A DNA stretch of 64,000 nt, from the sequence record OQ174504.1; one strand, given 5' to 3'. The position numbers and the translations under genes are program-made. Shown one piece after another: positions 18,910-43,926 of the stretch. The number at the start of each line of letters is the position of its first letter. Position 1 is the stretch's first letter. The DNA is from Escherichia phage REP5. The notes beneath the pieces are model-generated. The model ran no database searches. It was not told the origin of the DNA and worked only from the letters and a program-made list of their open reading frames with translations.

Positions 18910-19695
18910 TTAGTTATTTGCGTCTAAGAAGGTAACTTCTGGTGAAGAGAAGATTGCCCCAATATCCTCATCAGTTCTTGCATAGATGTAGGCATCTGCA
19001 TCACTGCCAAATGTTACTGCAATCCTGTGATTGCTCTTCGACAGGTGGGTAACTAGAGCGTTACTTAGAGACATCTTTTCAACCGGAGGGTTACTTTGAT
19101 GTACCTTACCTTTTCTTCGTCTGAAGAGGGTAACTGCATTATCTGAGAACACTGCTACGCCTGCAAAGTATTCTGGTTCACAGTAGTTCTTCCAACCTGA
19201 GTGTAACTCATTATACATTTTTGCTTCATAGACATACAGATAAACATCTACACTCTTCATTGCCTGATTAATGATAACTGTGACAGCTTGAGGGTCAAGT
19301 CCACCGATACCTGCGCCAATCATAGGTAACCCAACTTTCTTCAACTGATTAACTTCACAGTATCTGTTAAGTTGCTTCAAAGATGACTCTAAAGCACTGT
19401 AACGGGCATCTTTACCAGTCTTAAGCTGAGTGTAAAGATTAGCTATACGACCTTGTTTTAAACGCGCTACAGAGAAATTACCTAGTAAATTTTCACAGGG
19501 TTTGTGGCCTATACCACCTGCATACAGATAAACTTCTGTATCGGTCTCATATGCTTTTGGGTAAAGTTTAGAAATCTTAGCAGCGATACCTGCACCCATT
19601 AAGTTCATACAGTTGCAACCGTGACCAATGATATCAAACTTACCCTTATCAAATGCGGAGAAGATATCCCCATTGATGATTTTTACAATACCCAT
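18910..19695 (-). CDS. Macro-domain protein (ADP-ribose binding/processing) with C-terminal extension
   Basis: 261 aa; INGDIF..DIIGHGCNCMNLMGAGIA and GLPMIGAGIGGLDP resemble macro-domain glycine-rich motifs. Confidence 0.6.
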   Translation of the reverse strand: MGIVKIINGDIFSAFDKGKFDIIGHGCNCMNLMGAGIAAKISKLYPKAYETDTEVYLYAGGIGHKPCENLLGNFSVARLKQGRIANLYTQLKTGKDARYSALESSLKQLNRYCEVNQLKKVGLPMIGAGIGGLDPQAVTVIINQAMKSVDVYLYVYEAKMYNELHSGWKNYCEPEYFAGVAVFSDNAVTLFRRRKGKVHQSNPPVEKMSLSNALVTHLSKSNHRIAVTFGSDADAYIYARTDEDIGAIFSSPEVTFLDANN

Positions 19696-21258: not shown

Positions 21259-21263
21259 GTGTA

Positions 21264-22076
21264 TTATTCTTGACTGTAATAGTTGACAAGTGAAATCGCT
21301 TGATTCATCAACAACTTATCAGCCTGTGCTCCGCGACCAGCTTGTAATGCCAGTTGGTATACCTCTGTAACATATTTGTTAGACATACCTTCACAGTAGT
21401 CATTATAGTCTTCCCAAAAGGAAAATGCAGCATCACCATATAGGCGTAGTGTAATTAACATTGCTGCACGAATCCCAGAAGAATATTTCCGTTTTGCGTT
21501 TACTACACCTTTAAGCTGTACTTCAAGAGAATCAATTTGTTCCAGCTCATTTTTAAAGTCGTTAAGATATTTAACTGTTTCAGTGTTAGATACTTGTTGT
21601 ACACCGTAGTATGCAGCAACATACTTAATAGCAGTTGCCCAAGATGCTTTCATCAGTTCTGACTCTGGGTTGAAAGAAATCATCTTCATATTTCCGTAAT
21701 AAACTTCTGAAGGTTTTTCTCTTGCTAACTCAGAGTCAAAATGAGTGTACAAATCTGTGACATCCAATATGGAGTTCACATGGTATATAACTACAATCAA
21801 GTTTTCTGGTCGTGTCAGGTTACCAACTTTCCATGCCTCTCGACGTGAGTGCCCATCAATGATGAACAGTGAACTGCCGAACTTAGCCACATGGACTACT
21901 GTTTGGTCTGGTGATACGTCACCATTAAGGTGTTTACTTTTCAGACGCTTAAGTGTATTTCGTTGACGAGGGTTTTCTTTGTAACGTTTTTCATTAAGAA
22001 AATCCTCGACACTGATAATCTTAGTGTGAATTTTAACAACCTTGCCATTCAGTGCTACATTGATGCTGTTTGCCAT
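21264..22076 (-). CDS. ParB/sulfiredoxin-like domain protein
   Basis: 270 aa; IIDGHSRREAW resembles the ParB-like nuclease domain motif. Confidence 0.5.
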   Translation of the reverse strand: MANSINVALNGKVVKIHTKIISVEDFLNEKRYKENPRQRNTLKRLKSKHLNGDVSPDQTVVHVAKFGSSLFIIDGHSRREAWKVGNLTRPENLIVVIYHVNSILDVTDLYTHFDSELAREKPSEVYYGNMKMISFNPESELMKASWATAIKYVAAYYGVQQVSNTETVKYLNDFKNELEQIDSLEVQLKGVVNAKRKYSSGIRAAMLITLRLYGDAAFSFWEDYNDYCEGMSNKYVTEVYQLALQAGRGAQADKLLMNQAISLVNYYSQE

Positions 22077-22087
22077 AACTTGATACC

Positions 22088-22972
22088 TTAGTTGTGGATA
22101 ATTACTTCGTTAATATCTTTGCTTCTCTGTGCATGTATTGTGTATGAATGGCTAACCTCTGTCAAGTTAAAATTTTCAGGAATTAGTTTTGCCCATCCAT
22201 CCCACTGAGAGTTTGACATCAAAACTTTAGAGCCTAACTCCCCCCAAGAAATCATATCTTCGCATAATTTTACAGACATCTCAATGTCAAACTTTGCACC
22301 ATATTTCTGGTTGGTGTTGATATACGGGGGGTCACAGTAAATAACTGTGCCTTCTCCATGTTTTATGTCAACCCTGTCATAAGGTTCACTGCTAAGTATT
22401 ACCCTCTCATCAGTGATAAAACTGTAGAACGCGGATAGTGATTCTTTAGTTTTTGTGAAGAAAATCTCTTCTTCCAGTAAATACCCACAAGGTGTTGCAT
22501 AGTGACCTTTCATCTCTTTAGTAGTCTGCCATACACCACCAAAACTTAGTTTTTGAAGGAAAAACTGTCTGGCGTAGTACCTGTAGTCATATGCTCCCTC
22601 TTCACCAAGCAAAAGAAGTTCCTCTCTTACACTGTAATACATTTTATAGCGTAGACGGTTATGACGCTGGCCTTTCACGGCATACTCTTCCTGCATAGGT
22701 AAGGCTAAGTACCTCTTTGACAAGTACTCAAATTCTTCCATGAAGTTCTCATAGTCATCTCTGAAAGTTGTGTAAAGACCTATAATATGTTTATTTATCT
22801 CATTAATAAACACTTTTGCCTCTGGATATCTGTTATAAGCCCATATAGCTACTGAACCACCACCTGAAAACAGGTCATAGAAGTTTGTACAGTTGTCTGG
22901 AAAGACACCTAAACGCTCATACTCTTTTAATATTCTTGTTTTACCACCAAGATATTTGAACATCGGCTTCAT
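22088..22972 (-). CDS. dam: DNA adenine methyltransferase (Dam family)
   Basis: 294 aa; YLGGK N-terminus, FSGGGS SAM motif, DPPY catalytic motif. Confidence 0.8.
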   Translation of the reverse strand: MKPMFKYLGGKTRILKEYERLGVFPDNCTNFYDLFSGGGSVAIWAYNRYPEAKVFINEINKHIIGLYTTFRDDYENFMEEFEYLSKRYLALPMQEEYAVKGQRHNRLRYKMYYSVREELLLLGEEGAYDYRYYARQFFLQKLSFGGVWQTTKEMKGHYATPCGYLLEEEIFFTKTKESLSAFYSFITDERVILSSEPYDRVDIKHGEGTVIYCDPPYINTNQKYGAKFDIEMSVKLCEDMISWGELGSKVLMSNSQWDGWAKLIPENFNLTEVSHSYTIHAQRSKDINEVIIHN

Positions 22973-22990
22973 TAATACTCCTTGAAATTT

Positions 22991-24819: not shown

Positions 24820-25929
24820 TTAGATTTCACGTTTACGCTGAGAGATAAGTTCACCAGCAGTGCCAACGATGACATGCAAAGCTTCAGTCTTGCCATCCCA
24901 TGCTTTCAGTACTTTACGTTGATTATCAACGATTGCTGCAACTTCATAACGAGACGAGCGCATCTTCATATCGTTGTAATCAGTTGGTACGGATACAACG
25001 TCTCGTGGATGGACACGAACCTTCAGAATTGTATCACCTGAGAAGTAACGAACATAATCCCAAGCACCAACGTGAAGACCTTGAGAGCAAGTCACGTTAC
25101 GGTTATTATCAACCATCCAACGTGGCATTTCTACAATGTTACCCAAATCATTAGGTACTTTGCAGGTGCGGGAGTCAACCAGCTTGCCTTCACGAGTAGA
25201 GACTTTCTTCCAACCAATGATGTAGCCTTCTTCATCAATTTCAACATCAAGGTGAGATATGAATCCCCAAAGTTGTTCTACAGAATCTTTAGATGGGTTT
25301 TCCATCAGTTTTTCGAAGAACATTACAAGTCGTTCAAAACCTTTATCACCAGTCTTCATCATGTGAAGTATACGGTCAACCAGAGTAGAACGCATCTCAA
25401 CAGCACCGTAGAATAGCTTATCACCTTTGATTGTGATAGCTCCCTGCGTGAAGTTTTCGATAGACTTACGAATGTTCATCAGTTCAAAGGCTTTCTTGAA
25501 CTCACCTTTCACAACATGAACTACAATCTCTTGATAGTTCGGATGAGTAGACTCAACAATTTCAGATTCTGAACCGTAAGTCATAATTACAGAGTCACCA
25601 GTAATCATGTACTCAATCTTGTCATCTTTCTGCATAGCTTCGTGCAGTTTATTTACTGGAGCTTTCTGTACAGAATCTTTAACAACCTTTTCAACTGGTT
25701 TGTCAGCTTTCTTTTTAAAGGTCTTAGCAACTTGCTTCAAAGTCTTCGTAGCTGGTGTAGAAGTTACCTTCTTATTCCCTTTTAATGTTGCTTCATGACG
25801 CTCTACAGCACGACCGACTGAACGGGTTGAAGTATTAAATTTCTGTGCAATAGCTGTTTTAGTCAGCTTACCTTCTTTAACCAGTTTGTAAATTTCTGCG
25901 TCAATCTGTGCTTTAGTTTTAGTAGTCAT
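24820..25929 (-). CDS. rIIB: rIIB-like protein
   Basis: 369 aa, immediately downstream of the rIIA-like gene; assignment by position and size. Confidence 0.5.
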   Translation of the reverse strand: MTTKTKAQIDAEIYKLVKEGKLTKTAIAQKFNTSTRSVGRAVERHEATLKGNKKVTSTPATKTLKQVAKTFKKKADKPVEKVVKDSVQKAPVNKLHEAMQKDDKIEYMITGDSVIMTYGSESEIVESTHPNYQEIVVHVVKGEFKKAFELMNIRKSIENFTQGAITIKGDKLFYGAVEMRSTLVDRILHMMKTGDKGFERLVMFFEKLMENPSKDSVEQLWGFISHLDVEIDEEGYIIGWKKVSTREGKLVDSRTCKVPNDLGNIVEMPRWMVDNNRNVTCSQGLHVGAWDYVRYFSGDTILKVRVHPRDVVSVPTDYNDMKMRSSRYEVAAIVDNQRKVLKAWDGKTEALHVIVGTAGELISQRKREI

Positions 25930-28913: not shown

Positions 28914-28935
28914 TAAAAAGGCTCCCGTAGGAGCC
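28914..28935 (-). terminator. Rho-independent terminator
   Basis: Hairpin ggctcctacgggagcc plus T-run on minus strand. Confidence 0.55.
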
Positions 28936-28950
28936 TCTTATCATATACTT

Positions 28951-30732
28951 TTAAAGCTGCTTGTCAATATTATTTCGAATATCACCAAGAGTTGTGTAGC
29001 CGAACTGCTCAGAGTCGCTAAAGACTAGACGTAAAGCACAAGCTGGATGTTCAAGTGCATCTGCAAAGCTCTGGAACCCATAGCCATCTACAGCTTTCAG
29101 ATTTTCACCATCCCACATAGGTGCTACACCACCAAAAGCAGACTTCTTAACACCGCTATCTGTTTTAGGGTCTTTTGCAAGCATAATCTCTTTACCACCA
29201 ATGCTTGCAAGAGTTGCTTTGACAGCAAATGCAAAGGTATCACGAGTCATGTACTGGTAAGTGTAAGAACCCACACCAAACACTACGTTAGAGCTTGCAA
29301 AACCCATTTCATACAAACGCTTCAGGATTTCGTTTGCACGTTCCAACGTGATAGAGTCACCATAAATAAGGCCAATGTGTTCATCCAGTACCTTAAAACC
29401 TTTAGAGTTGATAGTCCCTCCAAAGATGTTATACAAGGTCTTAATAGCCCCATCAATCTCTGCTACAGGACGTGTTACAACGTTTGCAGAACCAACCATA
29501 TAAGCGTTTTTCAACATCACTGTATCAGCAACTTCAAAGTCTTCTCTGTCAACAACCATTTCGTAGCCTTCTGACAGTAGCCATCCAGCAATACCATAAT
29601 TGATGTTTTCAAGCTTCATGTTCAGGACGGTGCTCAGCATTGTATCACTAGCTTCCAGCTTGCTAAGATGTTCGTAATAAGCCTTTTTAGCACACTCTAA
29701 ATGGATTGCTTTGTATCCTGTGACAATATGTACAGGGTCTCCAGAGTCAGGACGAATTACCAGTTTACCATCACGTTCCATAATCTCTTTACGGAGTTCT
29801 GGTAATATAACTGATACAGTTCTCCAGAAGTTATAAGTATCTGAAACAACACTTGCAATACCAGTTGGGTAAGTTTCTGTTAAGAAACGACGGAAGGTTT
29901 GTAACTCACCTTTAAAACGTCTTTCTTCTTCAATCAACTCATTACCACCTTCCCAAGCAATGTTTGCACACATTACAGAGTGTTCAGTGGCTGGTACAGA
30001 GCTACCAATATCAGAGATTGGGTAGGACTGTCCATAGATTCGTTTAGCCGTGTATACAGCAGGGAAGCTATCAGTCCCTTTAAAGCTGGTTAAGTGACCT
30101 ACAGCATTAAATGCGTCATCAGTAAAGCCAGACATACCACGCATAGCAAAGTCATGGCACTGATAAGGCAAATGTAAGTCATTGTCACAAGTAAGGTCAG
30201 ACCACTTCTTACAAATACGTTTGTAGTGCAATGCAATAGTTGCAATGGTACAAGCCTTCCAAATCTCAGCAGAGAAAGCATCTTCCAGATAACCTGCTAC
30301 CCAATGGAAACCTGAAACAGTGTTCTGGAAGACAATCATTGGTACACGCATCGGAACAACTGTACCTTCTTCTACAGCGTATACTTCAACTGGTAGATAA
30401 CCTAAGTCGTGAAGTGCTTCCCAATGCTCTCGACCGATAGCATCTTTACCTAGAACACCATTCATGACTTCTAAGATTTCGTCAACGGCTTCTTTTTTAT
30501 CACGTTCAAAGAAAGTGGCGTTCCAGTGGTCTATCAAGTAATCTTTAACAAAACGTTGAATACCAAAAGCTACTACACCGTCAATTGCTAAAGGACTGTT
30601 AAACCATTTATCACTACGTGGTGTCAGGTTCAACATAAGATATTGCGTAGCATCTGGATACTGATATATATGTGATGCCTTGTAAGCATCTGCATTAAGA
30701 CCTGCTGGTACTGCATAAAGTGATTTAGTCAT
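28951..30732 (-). CDS. nadV: Nicotinamide phosphoribosyltransferase (NAMPT/NadV)
   Basis: 593 aa; N-terminal DAYKASHIYQYP matches the NAMPT signature. Confidence 0.85.
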   Translation of the reverse strand: MTKSLYAVPAGLNADAYKASHIYQYPDATQYLMLNLTPRSDKWFNSPLAIDGVVAFGIQRFVKDYLIDHWNATFFERDKKEAVDEILEVMNGVLGKDAIGREHWEALHDLGYLPVEVYAVEEGTVVPMRVPMIVFQNTVSGFHWVAGYLEDAFSAEIWKACTIATIALHYKRICKKWSDLTCDNDLHLPYQCHDFAMRGMSGFTDDAFNAVGHLTSFKGTDSFPAVYTAKRIYGQSYPISDIGSSVPATEHSVMCANIAWEGGNELIEEERRFKGELQTFRRFLTETYPTGIASVVSDTYNFWRTVSVILPELRKEIMERDGKLVIRPDSGDPVHIVTGYKAIHLECAKKAYYEHLSKLEASDTMLSTVLNMKLENINYGIAGWLLSEGYEMVVDREDFEVADTVMLKNAYMVGSANVVTRPVAEIDGAIKTLYNIFGGTINSKGFKVLDEHIGLIYGDSITLERANEILKRLYEMGFASSNVVFGVGSYTYQYMTRDTFAFAVKATLASIGGKEIMLAKDPKTDSGVKKSAFGGVAPMWDGENLKAVDGYGFQSFADALEHPACALRLVFSDSEQFGYTTLGDIRNNIDKQL

Positions 30733-30777
30733 CTTTTAATCTCTCTCAAAATGGGGCTTTTAAGCCCCTATAAACTT

Positions 30778-31677
30778 TCAATCAAGGTTTGCTACAGTAA
30801 CTTGACTATAATGTGTTAAGCTACGGTCTTTAGCTTCTCCTAAAGAGTTTGTAGTGTAGATGTGGTCAATACCATTGTCAAGTAAGTTTTCAACACCTTT
30901 AGAGAAAATACCATGAGTTACATAGAGTTCCACACGTTTTGCACCTGCTTCACGTAGGTGTTTAGCTGCCTCTACGAAGGTTCGACCACCATCACAGATA
31001 TCATCAAGAATCATAACAGTTTTATCTGTCAAATCAACATCATCAAGGATTCGCATACCAGTAATTTCACCAGTCTTAAGGTTACGTACTTTAGACATTG
31101 TGATATATGGTTTATCCACCTCTTTAGCAGTCTCTGCAATCTTCTTAGAAGCACCTGCATCTGGGGCTACTAAGTAATCAACCAGTGGGTCATTTGCATA
31201 GTGGACTGCAATTTCCTTTTGAGAAATACTCTGGAAGCAGTTAAACAGGTTATCTGATACATAACTGTGAGGGTCAACGGCACAGACTGCATCAAAACCC
31301 ATTGCATTAACCTGTTGTGCAAACACTTTCAAAGCTGCTGCATCACCTTTAAACATGTGACGGTCATAACGTGCATTTGGCAAATAGTAAAAGATAGCAG
31401 TCTTCATAGCAAACTTATGAGGTACTAAATCATCAATTGCCTCTTTAGCAAGTGCCACAGCAAATAATGTGTCCTTGTCATAACCTTTCACAATCATAAT
31501 CACATTGTTGATAGACGATGCTGCATAAGCAGTAAAATCAACAAGCTCTTGTGAAAAATGTCCACCAATCTCACCAGAAGGGAATTGGATGATGTTAAAC
31601 TCTTCTTCATGAGTTCCTTTAGTCGGTGAATGAACTGTAACACGGATAGATGTTTTCATAGTTTCTCTCTTAGTCAA
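30778..31677 (-). CDS. prs: Ribose-phosphate pyrophosphokinase (PRPP synthetase)
   Basis: 299 aa; VMILDDICDGGRT PRPP-binding motif, FPSGEI N-terminal motif. Confidence 0.75.
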   Translation of the reverse strand: MTKRETMKTSIRVTVHSPTKGTHEEEFNIIQFPSGEIGGHFSQELVDFTAYAASSINNVIMIVKGYDKDTLFAVALAKEAIDDLVPHKFAMKTAIFYYLPNARYDRHMFKGDAAALKVFAQQVNAMGFDAVCAVDPHSYVSDNLFNCFQSISQKEIAVHYANDPLVDYLVAPDAGASKKIAETAKEVDKPYITMSKVRNLKTGEITGMRILDDVDLTDKTVMILDDICDGGRTFVEAAKHLREAGAKRVELYVTHGIFSKGVENLLDNGIDHIYTTNSLGEAKDRSLTHYSQVTVANLD

Positions 31678-31948
31678 AAGTTACGTTTGTTACTGCCATT
31701 GCAGATTTGCATTTTGCAGGGTCTACAACGTGATAAAGTACACTACAGTTACCTGTGCTGTCTGGTACAGGCTTTACCCATTGATGCTTTATAGTTGGCT
31801 CTCCTAAGTCTTTGTAAGAACCATCTGTAAAGTTGTTTACCATCTCAAGTGCAATTGGTTCTGGAACATGACCACGTATCATGTACATTTCACAACCATT
31901 ACCGCCTTCACTGACTAATGGTAAAATCTCCCACTTCTCTTTAGCCAT
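31670..31948 (-). CDS. Hypothetical protein
   Basis: 92 aa ORF. Confidence 0.55.
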   Translation of the reverse strand: MAKEKWEILPLVSEGGNGCEMYMIRGHVPEPIALEMVNNFTDGSYKDLGEPTIKHQWVKPVPDSTGNCSVLYHVVDPAKCKSAMAVTNVTFD

Positions 31949-32456
31949 TGTAAGTTGCCCTATAAACTGTCTCGAACTTCAACAGGAGAGATATTGCCAA
32001 ATCTGTATAGTTGTTGTCAAGCACATCTGGCATATTATTTTTGATATATTTCTCTTGTTCTTCATAGGTCATCTTAGGGATACTTAGGAGGCTATCCCCT
32101 TGCTTCTGGTTATCAAGTTTAGTCTGAATAAACCAGTTTGCACAGTGATGCTCACCACCCTTTGTAACAGGTTTGTAGTGGCCTAATGTGAAGGATTGAC
32201 TACCTGTGTATCTGCAAAGTTTATTGAGTACCGTAATGGTGTTCTTCACAACAAAACATTCATACAGGTTGTCTATGGTGTAGTGTGGGTAATATCGGAA
32301 TAGTGCTCTTTCACGAGTACTCTCACGATTCCAGAGAACCATATGATTAGAGTTAGAAGGGTCGTATTGGTGGGAGTCAATGAACTCTTGACGTTCCTCA
32401 AAGCTAAGTCTTAACACTGACATTGCAGCAGAACGTTTTAGGTTTGACAGATACAT
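31941..32456 (-). CDS. Hypothetical protein
   Basis: 171 aa ORF. Confidence 0.55.
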   Translation of the reverse strand: MYLSNLKRSAAMSVLRLSFEERQEFIDSHQYDPSNSNHMVLWNRESTRERALFRYYPHYTIDNLYECFVVKNTITVLNKLCRYTGSQSFTLGHYKPVTKGGEHHCANWFIQTKLDNQKQGDSLLSIPKMTYEEQEKYIKNNMPDVLDNNYTDLAISLLLKFETVYRATYNG

Positions 32457-32507
32457 TTTATCTCCAAAATAAAAAGGGAACCTTTACAGTTCCCCTATAG
32501 TATCTGT

Positions 32508-42131: not shown

Positions 42132-42456
42132 GGTATTTCTCCAAGTTTCTTTTTAGATATAACCAACCGTAGTCAGTCCTTTCTACACCCATAAAGAGTG
42201 GAGCCATCACGACTTTACCAAAAGTATTCCTGTGTTGGCAGATTTCAAAGGAATACTCTTTCTCAATATCAATCCCATATTTGTACAGGACTGCTTTTAA
42301 AACTTGTTCATTATCCAGAAGTGTATCTGGAGTCTCACCATACTTCTCAAGTAACGGGTCATACATAAACACCGTCATAGAAATATTATAGTTTGAGAAG
42401 TGGCTCTTCTGAGCCACACCTTCTTTATTAATGTTCTGTGAATCCATTATAACCAA
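42124..42456 (-). CDS. Hypothetical protein
   Basis: 110 aa ORF. Confidence 0.55.
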   Translation of the reverse strand: MVIMDSQNINKEGVAQKSHFSNYNISMTVFMYDPLLEKYGETPDTLLDNEQVLKAVLYKYGIDIEKEYSFEICQHRNTFGKVVMAPLFMGVERTDYGWLYLKRNLEKYRV

Positions 42457-43183
42457 CCCCTTTTAACCAGCACTTCAGGTTATTAGCATCATAATTCAGT
42501 TTCGGGTATGAGGTTACATGGAACTGCTCACCATCATAGTAGACAATATCTGCAATCCATAGTCCATTCTCTTTACAGAAGTCTTTATCTGCTTTAGAGG
42601 TAATTGGATTAACTTCTACAAAACCATCTACACCCAAATCCTTTAAGCTACCTACAATACCTTTGCAGATAACGCATGTCTCAGATACTACCACAAAAAG
42701 TTCTTGGCTTTCAAGTTCTACAATGTATTCACCAAGCTGTACTTTAGGGAGATTTGATTGCTTCATAATCTTCCCATCGGCTGCACGAACAATCGCATAC
42801 CACTCTTTACCATCAACTACTGACATTCTGATAATACACTCTTGACCAGTACGCTTTTCAATGTCTGCAAGACGTTTTAAAGCTTCTTCATAGTCATCTG
42901 TGTACTTCAGGTCATTATTATGGCAAACAGCTTTCATAGCACCGTTATGGTCATGTTGTGACAGATAAATCAAACCGTCAAGAACATATTGCAAATCCGC
43001 CTGAGCATCCAGTGTCTCAATGGGGTCTTTCTCTTCAATTGCTTTTACAAGCTCTTTTGCTTCTTCAAGCATACACAGGGATTGAGATTTTAAAGATTCC
43101 CAATACTCATTACTGTAAGGTTGCTTTTGAGTGTTTCCACAACGAAGGTTCCAGTTTTTTACTGATTCTCTTGAGTTAAACAT
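42428..43183 (-). CDS. MazG-like nucleotide pyrophosphohydrolase domain protein
   Basis: 251 aa; N-terminal EEAKELVKAIEE..ETLDAQADLQYVLD resembles the MazG EExxE/D motif. Confidence 0.5.
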   Translation of the reverse strand: MFNSRESVKNWNLRCGNTQKQPYSNEYWESLKSQSLCMLEEAKELVKAIEEKDPIETLDAQADLQYVLDGLIYLSQHDHNGAMKAVCHNNDLKYTDDYEEALKRLADIEKRTGQECIIRMSVVDGKEWYAIVRAADGKIMKQSNLPKVQLGEYIVELESQELFVVVSETCVICKGIVGSLKDLGVDGFVEVNPITSKADKDFCKENGLWIADIVYYDGEQFHVTSYPKLNYDANNLKCWLKGVGYNGFTEH

Positions 43184-43428: not shown

Positions 43429-43926
43429 TCAAGCACAATTTGCTTTCATTACCTTATGGATTCTTTTTTCAGCATCTTCATAAGTTTCTTTAGTAATAAA
43501 CTTAATTGCTGCAATATTGGCATTGTAGAAGAGTCTGAGCTTCGAGTCAATCCTTTTTGTCATTACATCGAATTTATGTTGAAGGTTTGCTTCACCATAA
43601 ACTAGGCCACCTTTTGTGTAGTAGGTCTGAATAATGTAAAAGTCAAAAAATTCTTTTCCAAAGCTCTCAATATCTTTTTTAATATACTCAGAAGAAGTCT
43701 CATAAGTCATCCAATCACTCTCCTTAGTGACTACCTTCTTCCGAGTCTTGCCAGCAACTTTTCTTTTGGTCACACTATTAAGCTGTTTCTTTCCAATATA
43801 GTATTGTCCGGTTTTCTTACAGTGTACTAAATAGACAAAACCAAAATGTTTAGTGGGGTCAACTTCCCCACATAAAGATACCCAATGACCATAGGTAGGA
43901 CAATTACCAAAGCCTTTAATCTTCAT
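43429..43926 (-). CDS. GIY-YIG-like nuclease (possible free-standing homing endonuclease)
   Basis: 165 aa; FGFVYLVHCKKTGQYYIGKK resembles the GIY-YIG motif. Confidence 0.45.
   Translation of the reverse strand: MKIKGFGNCPTYGHWVSLCGEVDPTKHFGFVYLVHCKKTGQYYIGKKQLNSVTKRKVAGKTRKKVVTKESDWMTYETSSEYIKKDIESFGKEFFDFYIIQTYYTKGGLVYGEANLQHKFDVMTKRIDSKLRLFYNANIAAIKFITKETYEDAEKRIHKVMKANCA

Follow-up and report, generated by a model that had tools for sequence, protein, structure and literature searches.

The two-gene NAD+ (nicotinamide adenine dinucleotide) reconstitution pathway 1, NARP1, is an important counter-defence that undoes the NAD+ depletion brought about by SIR2, TIR, SEFIR and DSR-type immunity, and its two reactions were first described in 2024. 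Osterman et al. (bioRxiv 10.1101/2024.02.11.579819) began with a Pfam-based expectation for genes 79-80 of Escherichia phage Bas63 (JohannRWettstein), namely a route through phosphoribosyl pyrophosphate (PRPP) and nicotinamide mononucleotide (NMN), and then refuted it. Deletion of the two genes left the phage ~20-fold more sensitive to SIR2-HerA, with deeper NAD+ depletion; Bas63 overcame SIR2-HerA even in a host without pncC and nadR; and ADP-ribose pyrophosphate (ADPR-PP, m/z 720.010) was seen only in cells infected with phage that had genes 79-80. In vitro, the purified 'Prs' homologue of Bacillus phage SPbetaL1 (SpbetaL1 below) pyrophosphorylated ADP-ribose and did not perform the PRPP-synthetase reaction. 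The 'NAMPT' homologue converted ADPR-PP and nicotinamide directly to NAD+, preferred ADPR-PP over PRPP, and made NAD+ as its sole product when offered both together. The enzymes were named Adps (ADP-ribose pyrophosphate synthetase) and Namat (nicotinamide ADP-ribose transferase), and the pathway NARP1. The same study reports rescue from NAD+-depleting defences (SIR2-HerA, Thoeris I, DSR1/2, SEFIR), based on deletions in Bas63 and FADO and on an SBSphiJ knock-in. It also finds that a Namat gene adjoins 97% of Adps-clade genes, and that true phage Nampts are accompanied by an NMN adenylyltransferase (NMNAT) and form a separate clade (bioRxiv 10.1101/2024.02.11.579819). Here we analyse a 64,000-nucleotide stretch of Escherichia phage REP5 (OQ174504.1; the window, to which all positions refer unless stated otherwise), in which a pair of adjoining genes is, with high probability, the NARP1 of a Felixounavirus.

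The gene pair and its Bas63 orthologue

An earlier note on the window had placed here adjacent genes for nicotinamide phosphoribosyltransferase (NAMPT) and PRPP synthetase (Prs), and of this the positions and the protein families stand, by Pfam, NCBIfam and PHROG alike. The open reading frame (ORF) at 28951-30732 is of NAMPT type by Pfam PF04095 (E 2e-34) and PF18127; it scores 469 bits with NCBIfam PRK09198, above the cutoff of 405, and E 5e-201 with PHROG 448. The second ORF, at 30778-31677 on the minus strand and 299 aa long when read from a TTG, is of Prs type by TIGR01251 (127.5 bits, cutoff 113) and PHROG 619 (E 2e-98). The scores for both families are far past chance. The enzyme functions named in the note do not stand, and are better read as those of Namat and Adps. 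The PRK09198 model cannot tell Namat from Nampt, so that a passing score is not counter to Namat. TIGR01251, a broad subfamily model, is the only Prs-type NCBIfam model that the adps product passes; it falls far under cutoff with all the Prs equivalog models (best NF002095, 107 bits against 296), and we therefore regard it as a divergent member of the Prs family.

Translation of adps almost certainly begins at the ATG at 31659, not at the TTG at 31677, and the protein then has 293 aa. A GAGAGA ribosome-binding site (RBS) lies 5-10 nt upstream of this ATG, the upstream gene stops at 31670 and is not overlapped by a start at 31659, and the matching ATG is the annotated adps start in both Escherichia phage REP6 and Bas63.

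Judged from protein identity and synteny, the pair is orthologous to Bas63 genes 79-80, which defined NARP1. Identity to Bas63_0079 is 79% for the adps product, across 293/293 aa, and identity to Bas63_0080 is 97% for the namat product. The two genes adjoin on the same (minus) strand, 45 nt apart, and Bas63 has the same site between the nrdG block and rIIA, the same gene order and gene lengths (882 and 1782 nt), a 45-nt spacer with a hairpin, and the same terminator. Found in Bas63 only is an extra 345-nt hypothetical gene, bas63_0081 (Bas63 25508-25852), which directly follows the namat terminator and is not in the window (~28904). Compared with Bas63, the spacer hairpin has an identical stem and one loop change; it might act as an attenuator, or affect processing or stability and so set the ratio of Adps to Namat.

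The adps-namat region is 100% identical to that of REP6 (OQ174505), a Felixounavirus, and the gene pair is present in 257 phage records. The REP6 proteins are listed in the supplementary tables of Osterman et al. (bioRxiv 10.1101/2024.02.11.579819), OQ174505_00094 as an Adps whose Namat association is 'Yes' and OQ174505_00093 as an "Adps-associated" Namat. The discovery paper thus includes these genes in its catalogue, and its founding example, the Bas63 operon, is nearly identical; what is described here is therefore a known system, and this instance brings no new biology.

In the mechanism that we propose for the window, a host defence NADase of the SIR2, TIR or SEFIR type would cleave NAD+ to ADP-ribose and nicotinamide. 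Adps would convert ADP-ribose and ATP to ADPR-PP and AMP, placing the pyrophosphate on the terminal ribose, and Namat would let nicotinamide displace this pyrophosphate, restoring NAD+ in a single step; neither PRPP, NMN nor an NMNAT would be involved. Gene structure, orthology and residue conservation are results of the present analysis, and the reactions and the counter-defence phenotype are taken from published orthologues and homologues. The proposal that the pair is an NAD+ reconstitution module countering NAD+-depleting defences, also put forward in the earlier note, is borne out by the data on the Bas63 orthologue (bioRxiv 10.1101/2024.02.11.579819).

Active-site and selectivity residues

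For Namat, residues were numbered after Lan et al. (PMC12774641), and the alignment made here reproduces that numbering exactly. The catalytic core is intact, with D15, Y17, F195, R198, D221, H251, R327 and D329 at the positions of SpbetaL1 D13, Y15, F189, R192, D215, H245, R306 and D308. The helix of the selectivity clamp carries Y490 and Y494 within its motif (Table 1). Three genuine Nampts are without the aromatic clamp residues at the same position, namely those of phi-ST2 (GGGLLQQLDRD), H. ducreyi (NadV, GAQTYQRNTRD) and Xanthomonas (GGALLQKVDRD). The loop of the clamp, RSDKWFNSPLAID, contains K42-W43. According to Lan et al. (PMC12774641), a lysine at the third loop position lets the fourth residue stack on the adenine, and Bas63 is given as an example. 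A Namat clamp loop has either Arg at position 3, or Lys or Tyr followed by a stacking residue, and by alignment K42-W43 is of the second kind.

The overall comparison of Namat points the same way. By sequence, its best match among solved structures is SpbetaL1 Namat (9W5W/9W5X, 433 bits), followed by NadV (356 bits), Xanthomonas Nampt (176) and mammalian NAMPT (146). An AlphaFold model (predicted local distance difference test, pLDDT, 92.4; predicted template modelling score, pTM, 0.90) yields a fold ranking that agrees with the sequence ranking, with a target-normalised template modelling (TM) score of 0.95 to 9W5X. The Namats of SpbetaL1 and ICP1, which have been assayed, are 43-46% identical to it, and the KVP40-type Nampt of phi-ST2 only ~27%. 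An inserted subdomain of 84 residues is predicted to be ordered (pLDDT 92-96 within the full model and 92.9 when modelled alone), at a site where Namats carry from 0 to about 80 extra residues; it is not discussed by Lan et al. (PMC12774641).

Many homologues of Namat, ~496 aa long and 46-48% identical, are also encoded on chromosomes of Enterobacteriaceae (Klebsiella, Cronobacter, Phytobacter, Kosakonia), under the annotation nicotinate phosphoribosyltransferase. Those that were aligned have the Namat-type motif GS[FY]TYQYNTRD, and these homologues may be bacterial NARP1 Namats like those of Lan et al.

For Adps, residues were numbered after ICP1 as in Liu et al. (PMC13586617). Membership in the Adps group rests on alignment to the ICP1 and SpbetaL1 sequences from phage records; the best match in the PDB copy searched, which held no solved Adps structure, is Sulfolobus Prs at 71 bits. 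Pairwise scores are 100-125 bits to Adps proteins (123-125 for ICP1 and Chloris) compared with 67 bits to E. coli Prs. Lys190, the predicted lysine of the catalytic beta-hairpin, corresponds to ICP1 K185 and SpbetaL1 K162, and the substitutions K185A and K162A abolish Adps activity in the respective enzymes. The acceptor-site residues R97, H131, D167, D219, D220 and D223 are kept (ICP1 R87, H121, D161, D212, D213 and D216). The PP loop reads CDGGRT, as compared with CDGAAS in ICP1 (C215-S220), SSFGGT in SpbetaL1 and IDTGGT in E. coli Prs. Of the four aromatic contacts compared with ICP1, two are kept, F26 (ICP1 F18, to the ADP-ribose (ADPR) adenine) and F228 (ICP1 F221, in the ATP adenine lid). 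Lastly, Adps has 293 aa against 315 aa in E. coli Prs, and the alignment of the two leaves the last 21 residues of Prs uncovered, as would be expected if the C-terminal alpha11-alpha12 PRPS module, whose loss defines the family, were missing.

The 5' end of adps is sharply mosaic. DNA identity to Bas63 is ~96% directly upstream of the gene, 57-61% over its first 270 nt and >90% further downstream; protein identity is 62% for aa 1-90, 76% for aa 91-180 and 96% for aa 181-293. Felixounaviruses have two adps alleles, with about 155 phage records of the REP6 type (at least 90% identity) and about 93 of the Bas63 type (60-80%). Namat, by contrast, is 95-99% identical across those records. We infer that the window allele of Adps, with its diverged N-terminal third, has the same activity as its homologues.

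Table 1. Features of the predicted NARP1 locus and related elements in the window
Feature	Position	Strand	Basis
adps: predicted ADP-ribose pyrophosphate synthetase, Prs-like, 293 aa, first NARP1 gene	30778-31659	-	ORF, RBS, Bas63_0079 orthology
namat: predicted nicotinamide ADP-ribose transferase, NAMPT-like, 593 aa, second NARP1 gene	28951-30732	-	ORF, Bas63_0080 orthology
GGGGCU-UAAA-AGCCCC hairpin within the 45 nt between adps and namat; AUUUUG and the namat RBS GAGAGAG come next	30753-30768	-	dG -14.3 kcal/mol, z = -2.4
Putative intrinsic terminator at operon end, 12 nt past namat stop	28916-28939	-	10-bp stem, 5 GC pairs, T-run; identical in Bas63
Adps Lys190, predicted catalytic beta-hairpin lysine	31090-31092	-	Alignment (ICP1 K185, SpbetaL1 K162)
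Adps PP loop C222-D-G-G-R-T227, after D219-D220; ICP1 type	30979-30996	-	Alignment
Strongly diverged 5' module of adps, first ~90 codons	31382-31651	-	DNA identity to Bas63
Namat selectivity-clamp helix, motif GSYTYQYMTRD, aa 488-498	29239-29271	-	Alignment
Namat selectivity-clamp loop, aa 39-51, with K42-W43	30580-30618	-	Loop identical in Bas63
Namat inserted alpha/beta subdomain, 84 residues, aa ~340-423; not in the crystallised SpbetaL1 enzyme	29464-29715	-	Predicted fold
261-aa 'phosphatase': N-terminal Macro domain and ~100-residue C-terminal extension	18910-19695	-	Pfam (PF01661, E 7e-8)

Competing readings of the locus

Several points weigh against NARP1 and have to be set beside this evidence. 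The curated models PRK09198 and TIGR01251 name the two proteins as an ordinary phosphoribosyltransferase and an ordinary Prs. Two aromatic residues of ICP1 Adps are replaced in the window, F92, an ADPR adenine contact, by M102, and F223, of the ATP lid, by E230; both substitutions are common to Bas63, and SpbetaL1 differs at these positions too. In its first 90 residues the window Adps is 38% different from that of Bas63. Bas63 Adps purified poorly, and the in vitro data come from the homologues of SpbetaL1, ICP1 and DyoEdafos, with identities of only 31-46%. In vitro, moreover, Namat retains appreciable NMN formation from PRPP, and a minor NMN route might conceivably run beside its formation of NAD+.

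The alternative that survives best, which we nevertheless consider highly improbable, is that a genuine PRPP synthetase and a genuine Nampt make NMN, from which the host NadR/PncC route or an unrecognised phage NMNAT completes NAD+, as in a NARP2-like pathway minus its last enzyme. The Pfam, NCBIfam and PHROG names fit such a scheme, and the earlier note had adopted it, with NMN made from nicotinamide via PRPP and a last step that may be supplied by the host or encoded elsewhere. For the orthologous Bas63 operon, however, synthesis via PRPP has been refuted: the operon functions in a host without pncC and nadR, ADPR-PP is seen, SpbetaL1 Adps carries out no PRPP-synthetase reaction, and Namat gave only NAD+ with PRPP and ADPR-PP both supplied. 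With no NMN step in the pathway, a last step from the host or from elsewhere falls away as well. In addition, the window Namat has the adenine clamp, which genuine Nampts are without, and the true Nampts of phages pair with NMNAT in a separate clade, to which its low identity to the KVP40-type enzyme, set against its identity to Namats, would not assign it.

Nor is there an NMNAT in the genome, as judged from the REP6 annotation and tblastn. The earlier note had recognised none in the window and suggested searching the full genome for an NMNAT/Nudix gene; its observation holds, and our search of the REP6 genome, which found neither an NMNAT nor a Nudix gene, extends it to that genome as a whole. 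No gene bears such an annotation in the REP6 or Bas63 genomes, and tblastn with the E. coli proteins NadR and NadD as queries, run on both the window and the whole REP6 genome, gave best E values of 3-7. A NadR-like enzyme, which together with a PnuC-like transporter characterises NARP3, was likewise not found in the window or the REP6 genome. As we read the pathway, which has no NMN intermediate, the absent NMNAT is not a gap, because the two proteins share 79% and 97% of their residues with those of Bas63 and carry the Namat adenine clamp. The labels 'PRPP synthetase' and 'NAMPT' of Pfam, NCBIfam and PHROG therefore call for caution in annotation, since they point to the wrong pathway and to a non-existent NMNAT.

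Two further genes of the window were considered for a link to NAD+ and set aside. The 'NAD synthetase' of the REP6 annotation (PHROG 447; 43429-43926, minus strand) actually encodes a GIY-YIG endonuclease domain of the SegE type, by Pfam PF19835 (E 9e-28); its label is misleading and the gene is unrelated to NAD+. For a MazG-like pyrophosphatase (42428-43183), an NAD+ link was looked for and none was found.

Less probable again is a general nucleotide-supply module, in which the Prs-like enzyme would raise the PRPP supply to purine and pyrimidine synthesis while phage DNA is replicated, and the link to NAD+ defence would be incidental. The operon does sit amid nucleotide-metabolism genes (nrdA, nrdB, nrdD, nrdG, deoxynucleoside monophosphate (dNMP) kinase, thymidylate synthase and dihydrofolate reductase (DHFR)), as such a module might. 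Against this, the adjacency of a Namat gene to 97% of Adps-clade genes ties the two functions together, the assayed homologue makes no PRPP, the Prs equivalog models are missed by a wide margin, and the protein is without the regulatory C-terminal module of PRPS. That this phage has only decayed or inactive remnants of the genes, as the strong divergence of the Adps N-terminal third from the tested Bas63 allele could suggest, is hardly credible when both frames are intact and full length, all catalytic residues tested are conserved, the REP6-type Adps allele recurs at no less than 90% identity in about 155 phage records, and the Namat model is confidently folded.

Genomic setting and comparison with known systems

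Between a terminator at 32474-32496 and adps lie two small genes on the minus strand, of 171 aa (31941-32456) and 92 aa (31670-31948), which share an 8-nt overlap and are possibly transcribed together with NARP1. Only Felixounavirus-like phages have the 92-aa protein; the 171-aa protein occurs in rV5-like and Erwinia phages too. The ORFs immediately around the operon (of 92, 171, 111, 58 and 106 aa) gave no match to a RyR/RyDEP or Macro domain.

Over its whole length the window follows REP6 closely, at 99.94% identity for positions 1-21260 and 99.54% for 22974-64000. Positions 21261-22973 are 1.7 kb extra relative to REP6 and 99.8% identical to REP7; one gene there, at 22088-22972, is for a D12-class (Dam-like) N6-adenine DNA methyltransferase (Pfam E 2e-23), and another, at 21264-22076, for a protein of 270 aa without a Pfam match. 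By these identities, the window is a REP6/REP7-like mosaic, distinct from REP6 itself.

A variant pathway, NARP1-AP, has been described from Vibrio phage Gary, with the gene order Adps-Adpp-Namat (bioRxiv 10.64898/2026.01.28.702374), and has the core Adps and Namat in common with the window. Its Adpp converts the aRES product ADPR-1''-phosphate to ADP-ribose (bioRxiv 10.64898/2026.01.28.702374). The Macro gene of NARP1-AP lies inside the operon, whereas that of the window lies outside, 9.3 kb or about 17 genes downstream, and there is no Macro domain within two genes of the window operon. The window Macro protein is 27% identical (E 1e-14) to the Macro protein of Vibrio phage Chloris, whose operon is of the NARP1-AP architecture, with the Macro gene placed between those for Adps and Namat; the family of the window protein also occurs in T4-like phages without NARP1. 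It is conceivable, if doubtful, that Felixounaviruses run a split NARP1-AP, in which the distal Macro protein would dephosphorylate ADPR-1''-phosphate arising from aRES-type defences and so serve Adps and Namat in trans. The published survey covered two genes either side of each NARP1 operon, and its tables are without any Felixounavirus (bioRxiv 10.64898/2026.01.28.702374); because of this confinement, a split arrangement would have been missed. The same arms race may have left its marks on the enzymes themselves, in the 84-residue insertion of Namat and in the sharp replacement of the Adps N-terminal module.

Cellular salvage by Prs and Nampt/NadV uses the same folds and a like chemistry, a pyrophosphoryl group passing from ATP to the C1 hydroxyl of ribose and then being displaced by nicotinamide. 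NARP1 differs from it in the acceptor (ADP-ribose, not ribose-5-phosphate), in the product (NAD+, not NMN) and in the missing regulatory/filament module of Prs. NARP2 of Vibrio phage KVP40 (Nampt and a bifunctional Nmnat) likewise employs a NAMPT fold and nicotinamide and counters NAD+ depletion; it runs via PRPP and NMN and requires Nmnat, whereas the window is without Nmnat and pairs its NAMPT-fold enzyme with Adps. The NARP1 systems of SpbetaL1 and the Vibrio phage ICP1, for which SpbetaL1 Namat structures (9W5X/9W5W) and ICP1 Adps structures exist, follow the same two-enzyme logic. They share with the window the mapped catalytic and clamp-helix residues of Namat, and the catalytic Lys and acceptor Asp, His and Arg of Adps, although identity is only 31-46%; the window Namat differs by its 84-residue folded insertion and by a clamp loop 4 residues longer, with K42-W43 replacing R40. 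Closest to the window is the NARP1 of Bas63, from the same genus, Felixounavirus. The first ~90 codons of Bas63 adps are a different allele, but the C-terminal 113 residues of its Adps are 96% identical to those of the window, and its Namat shares both the clamp loop and the clamp helix.

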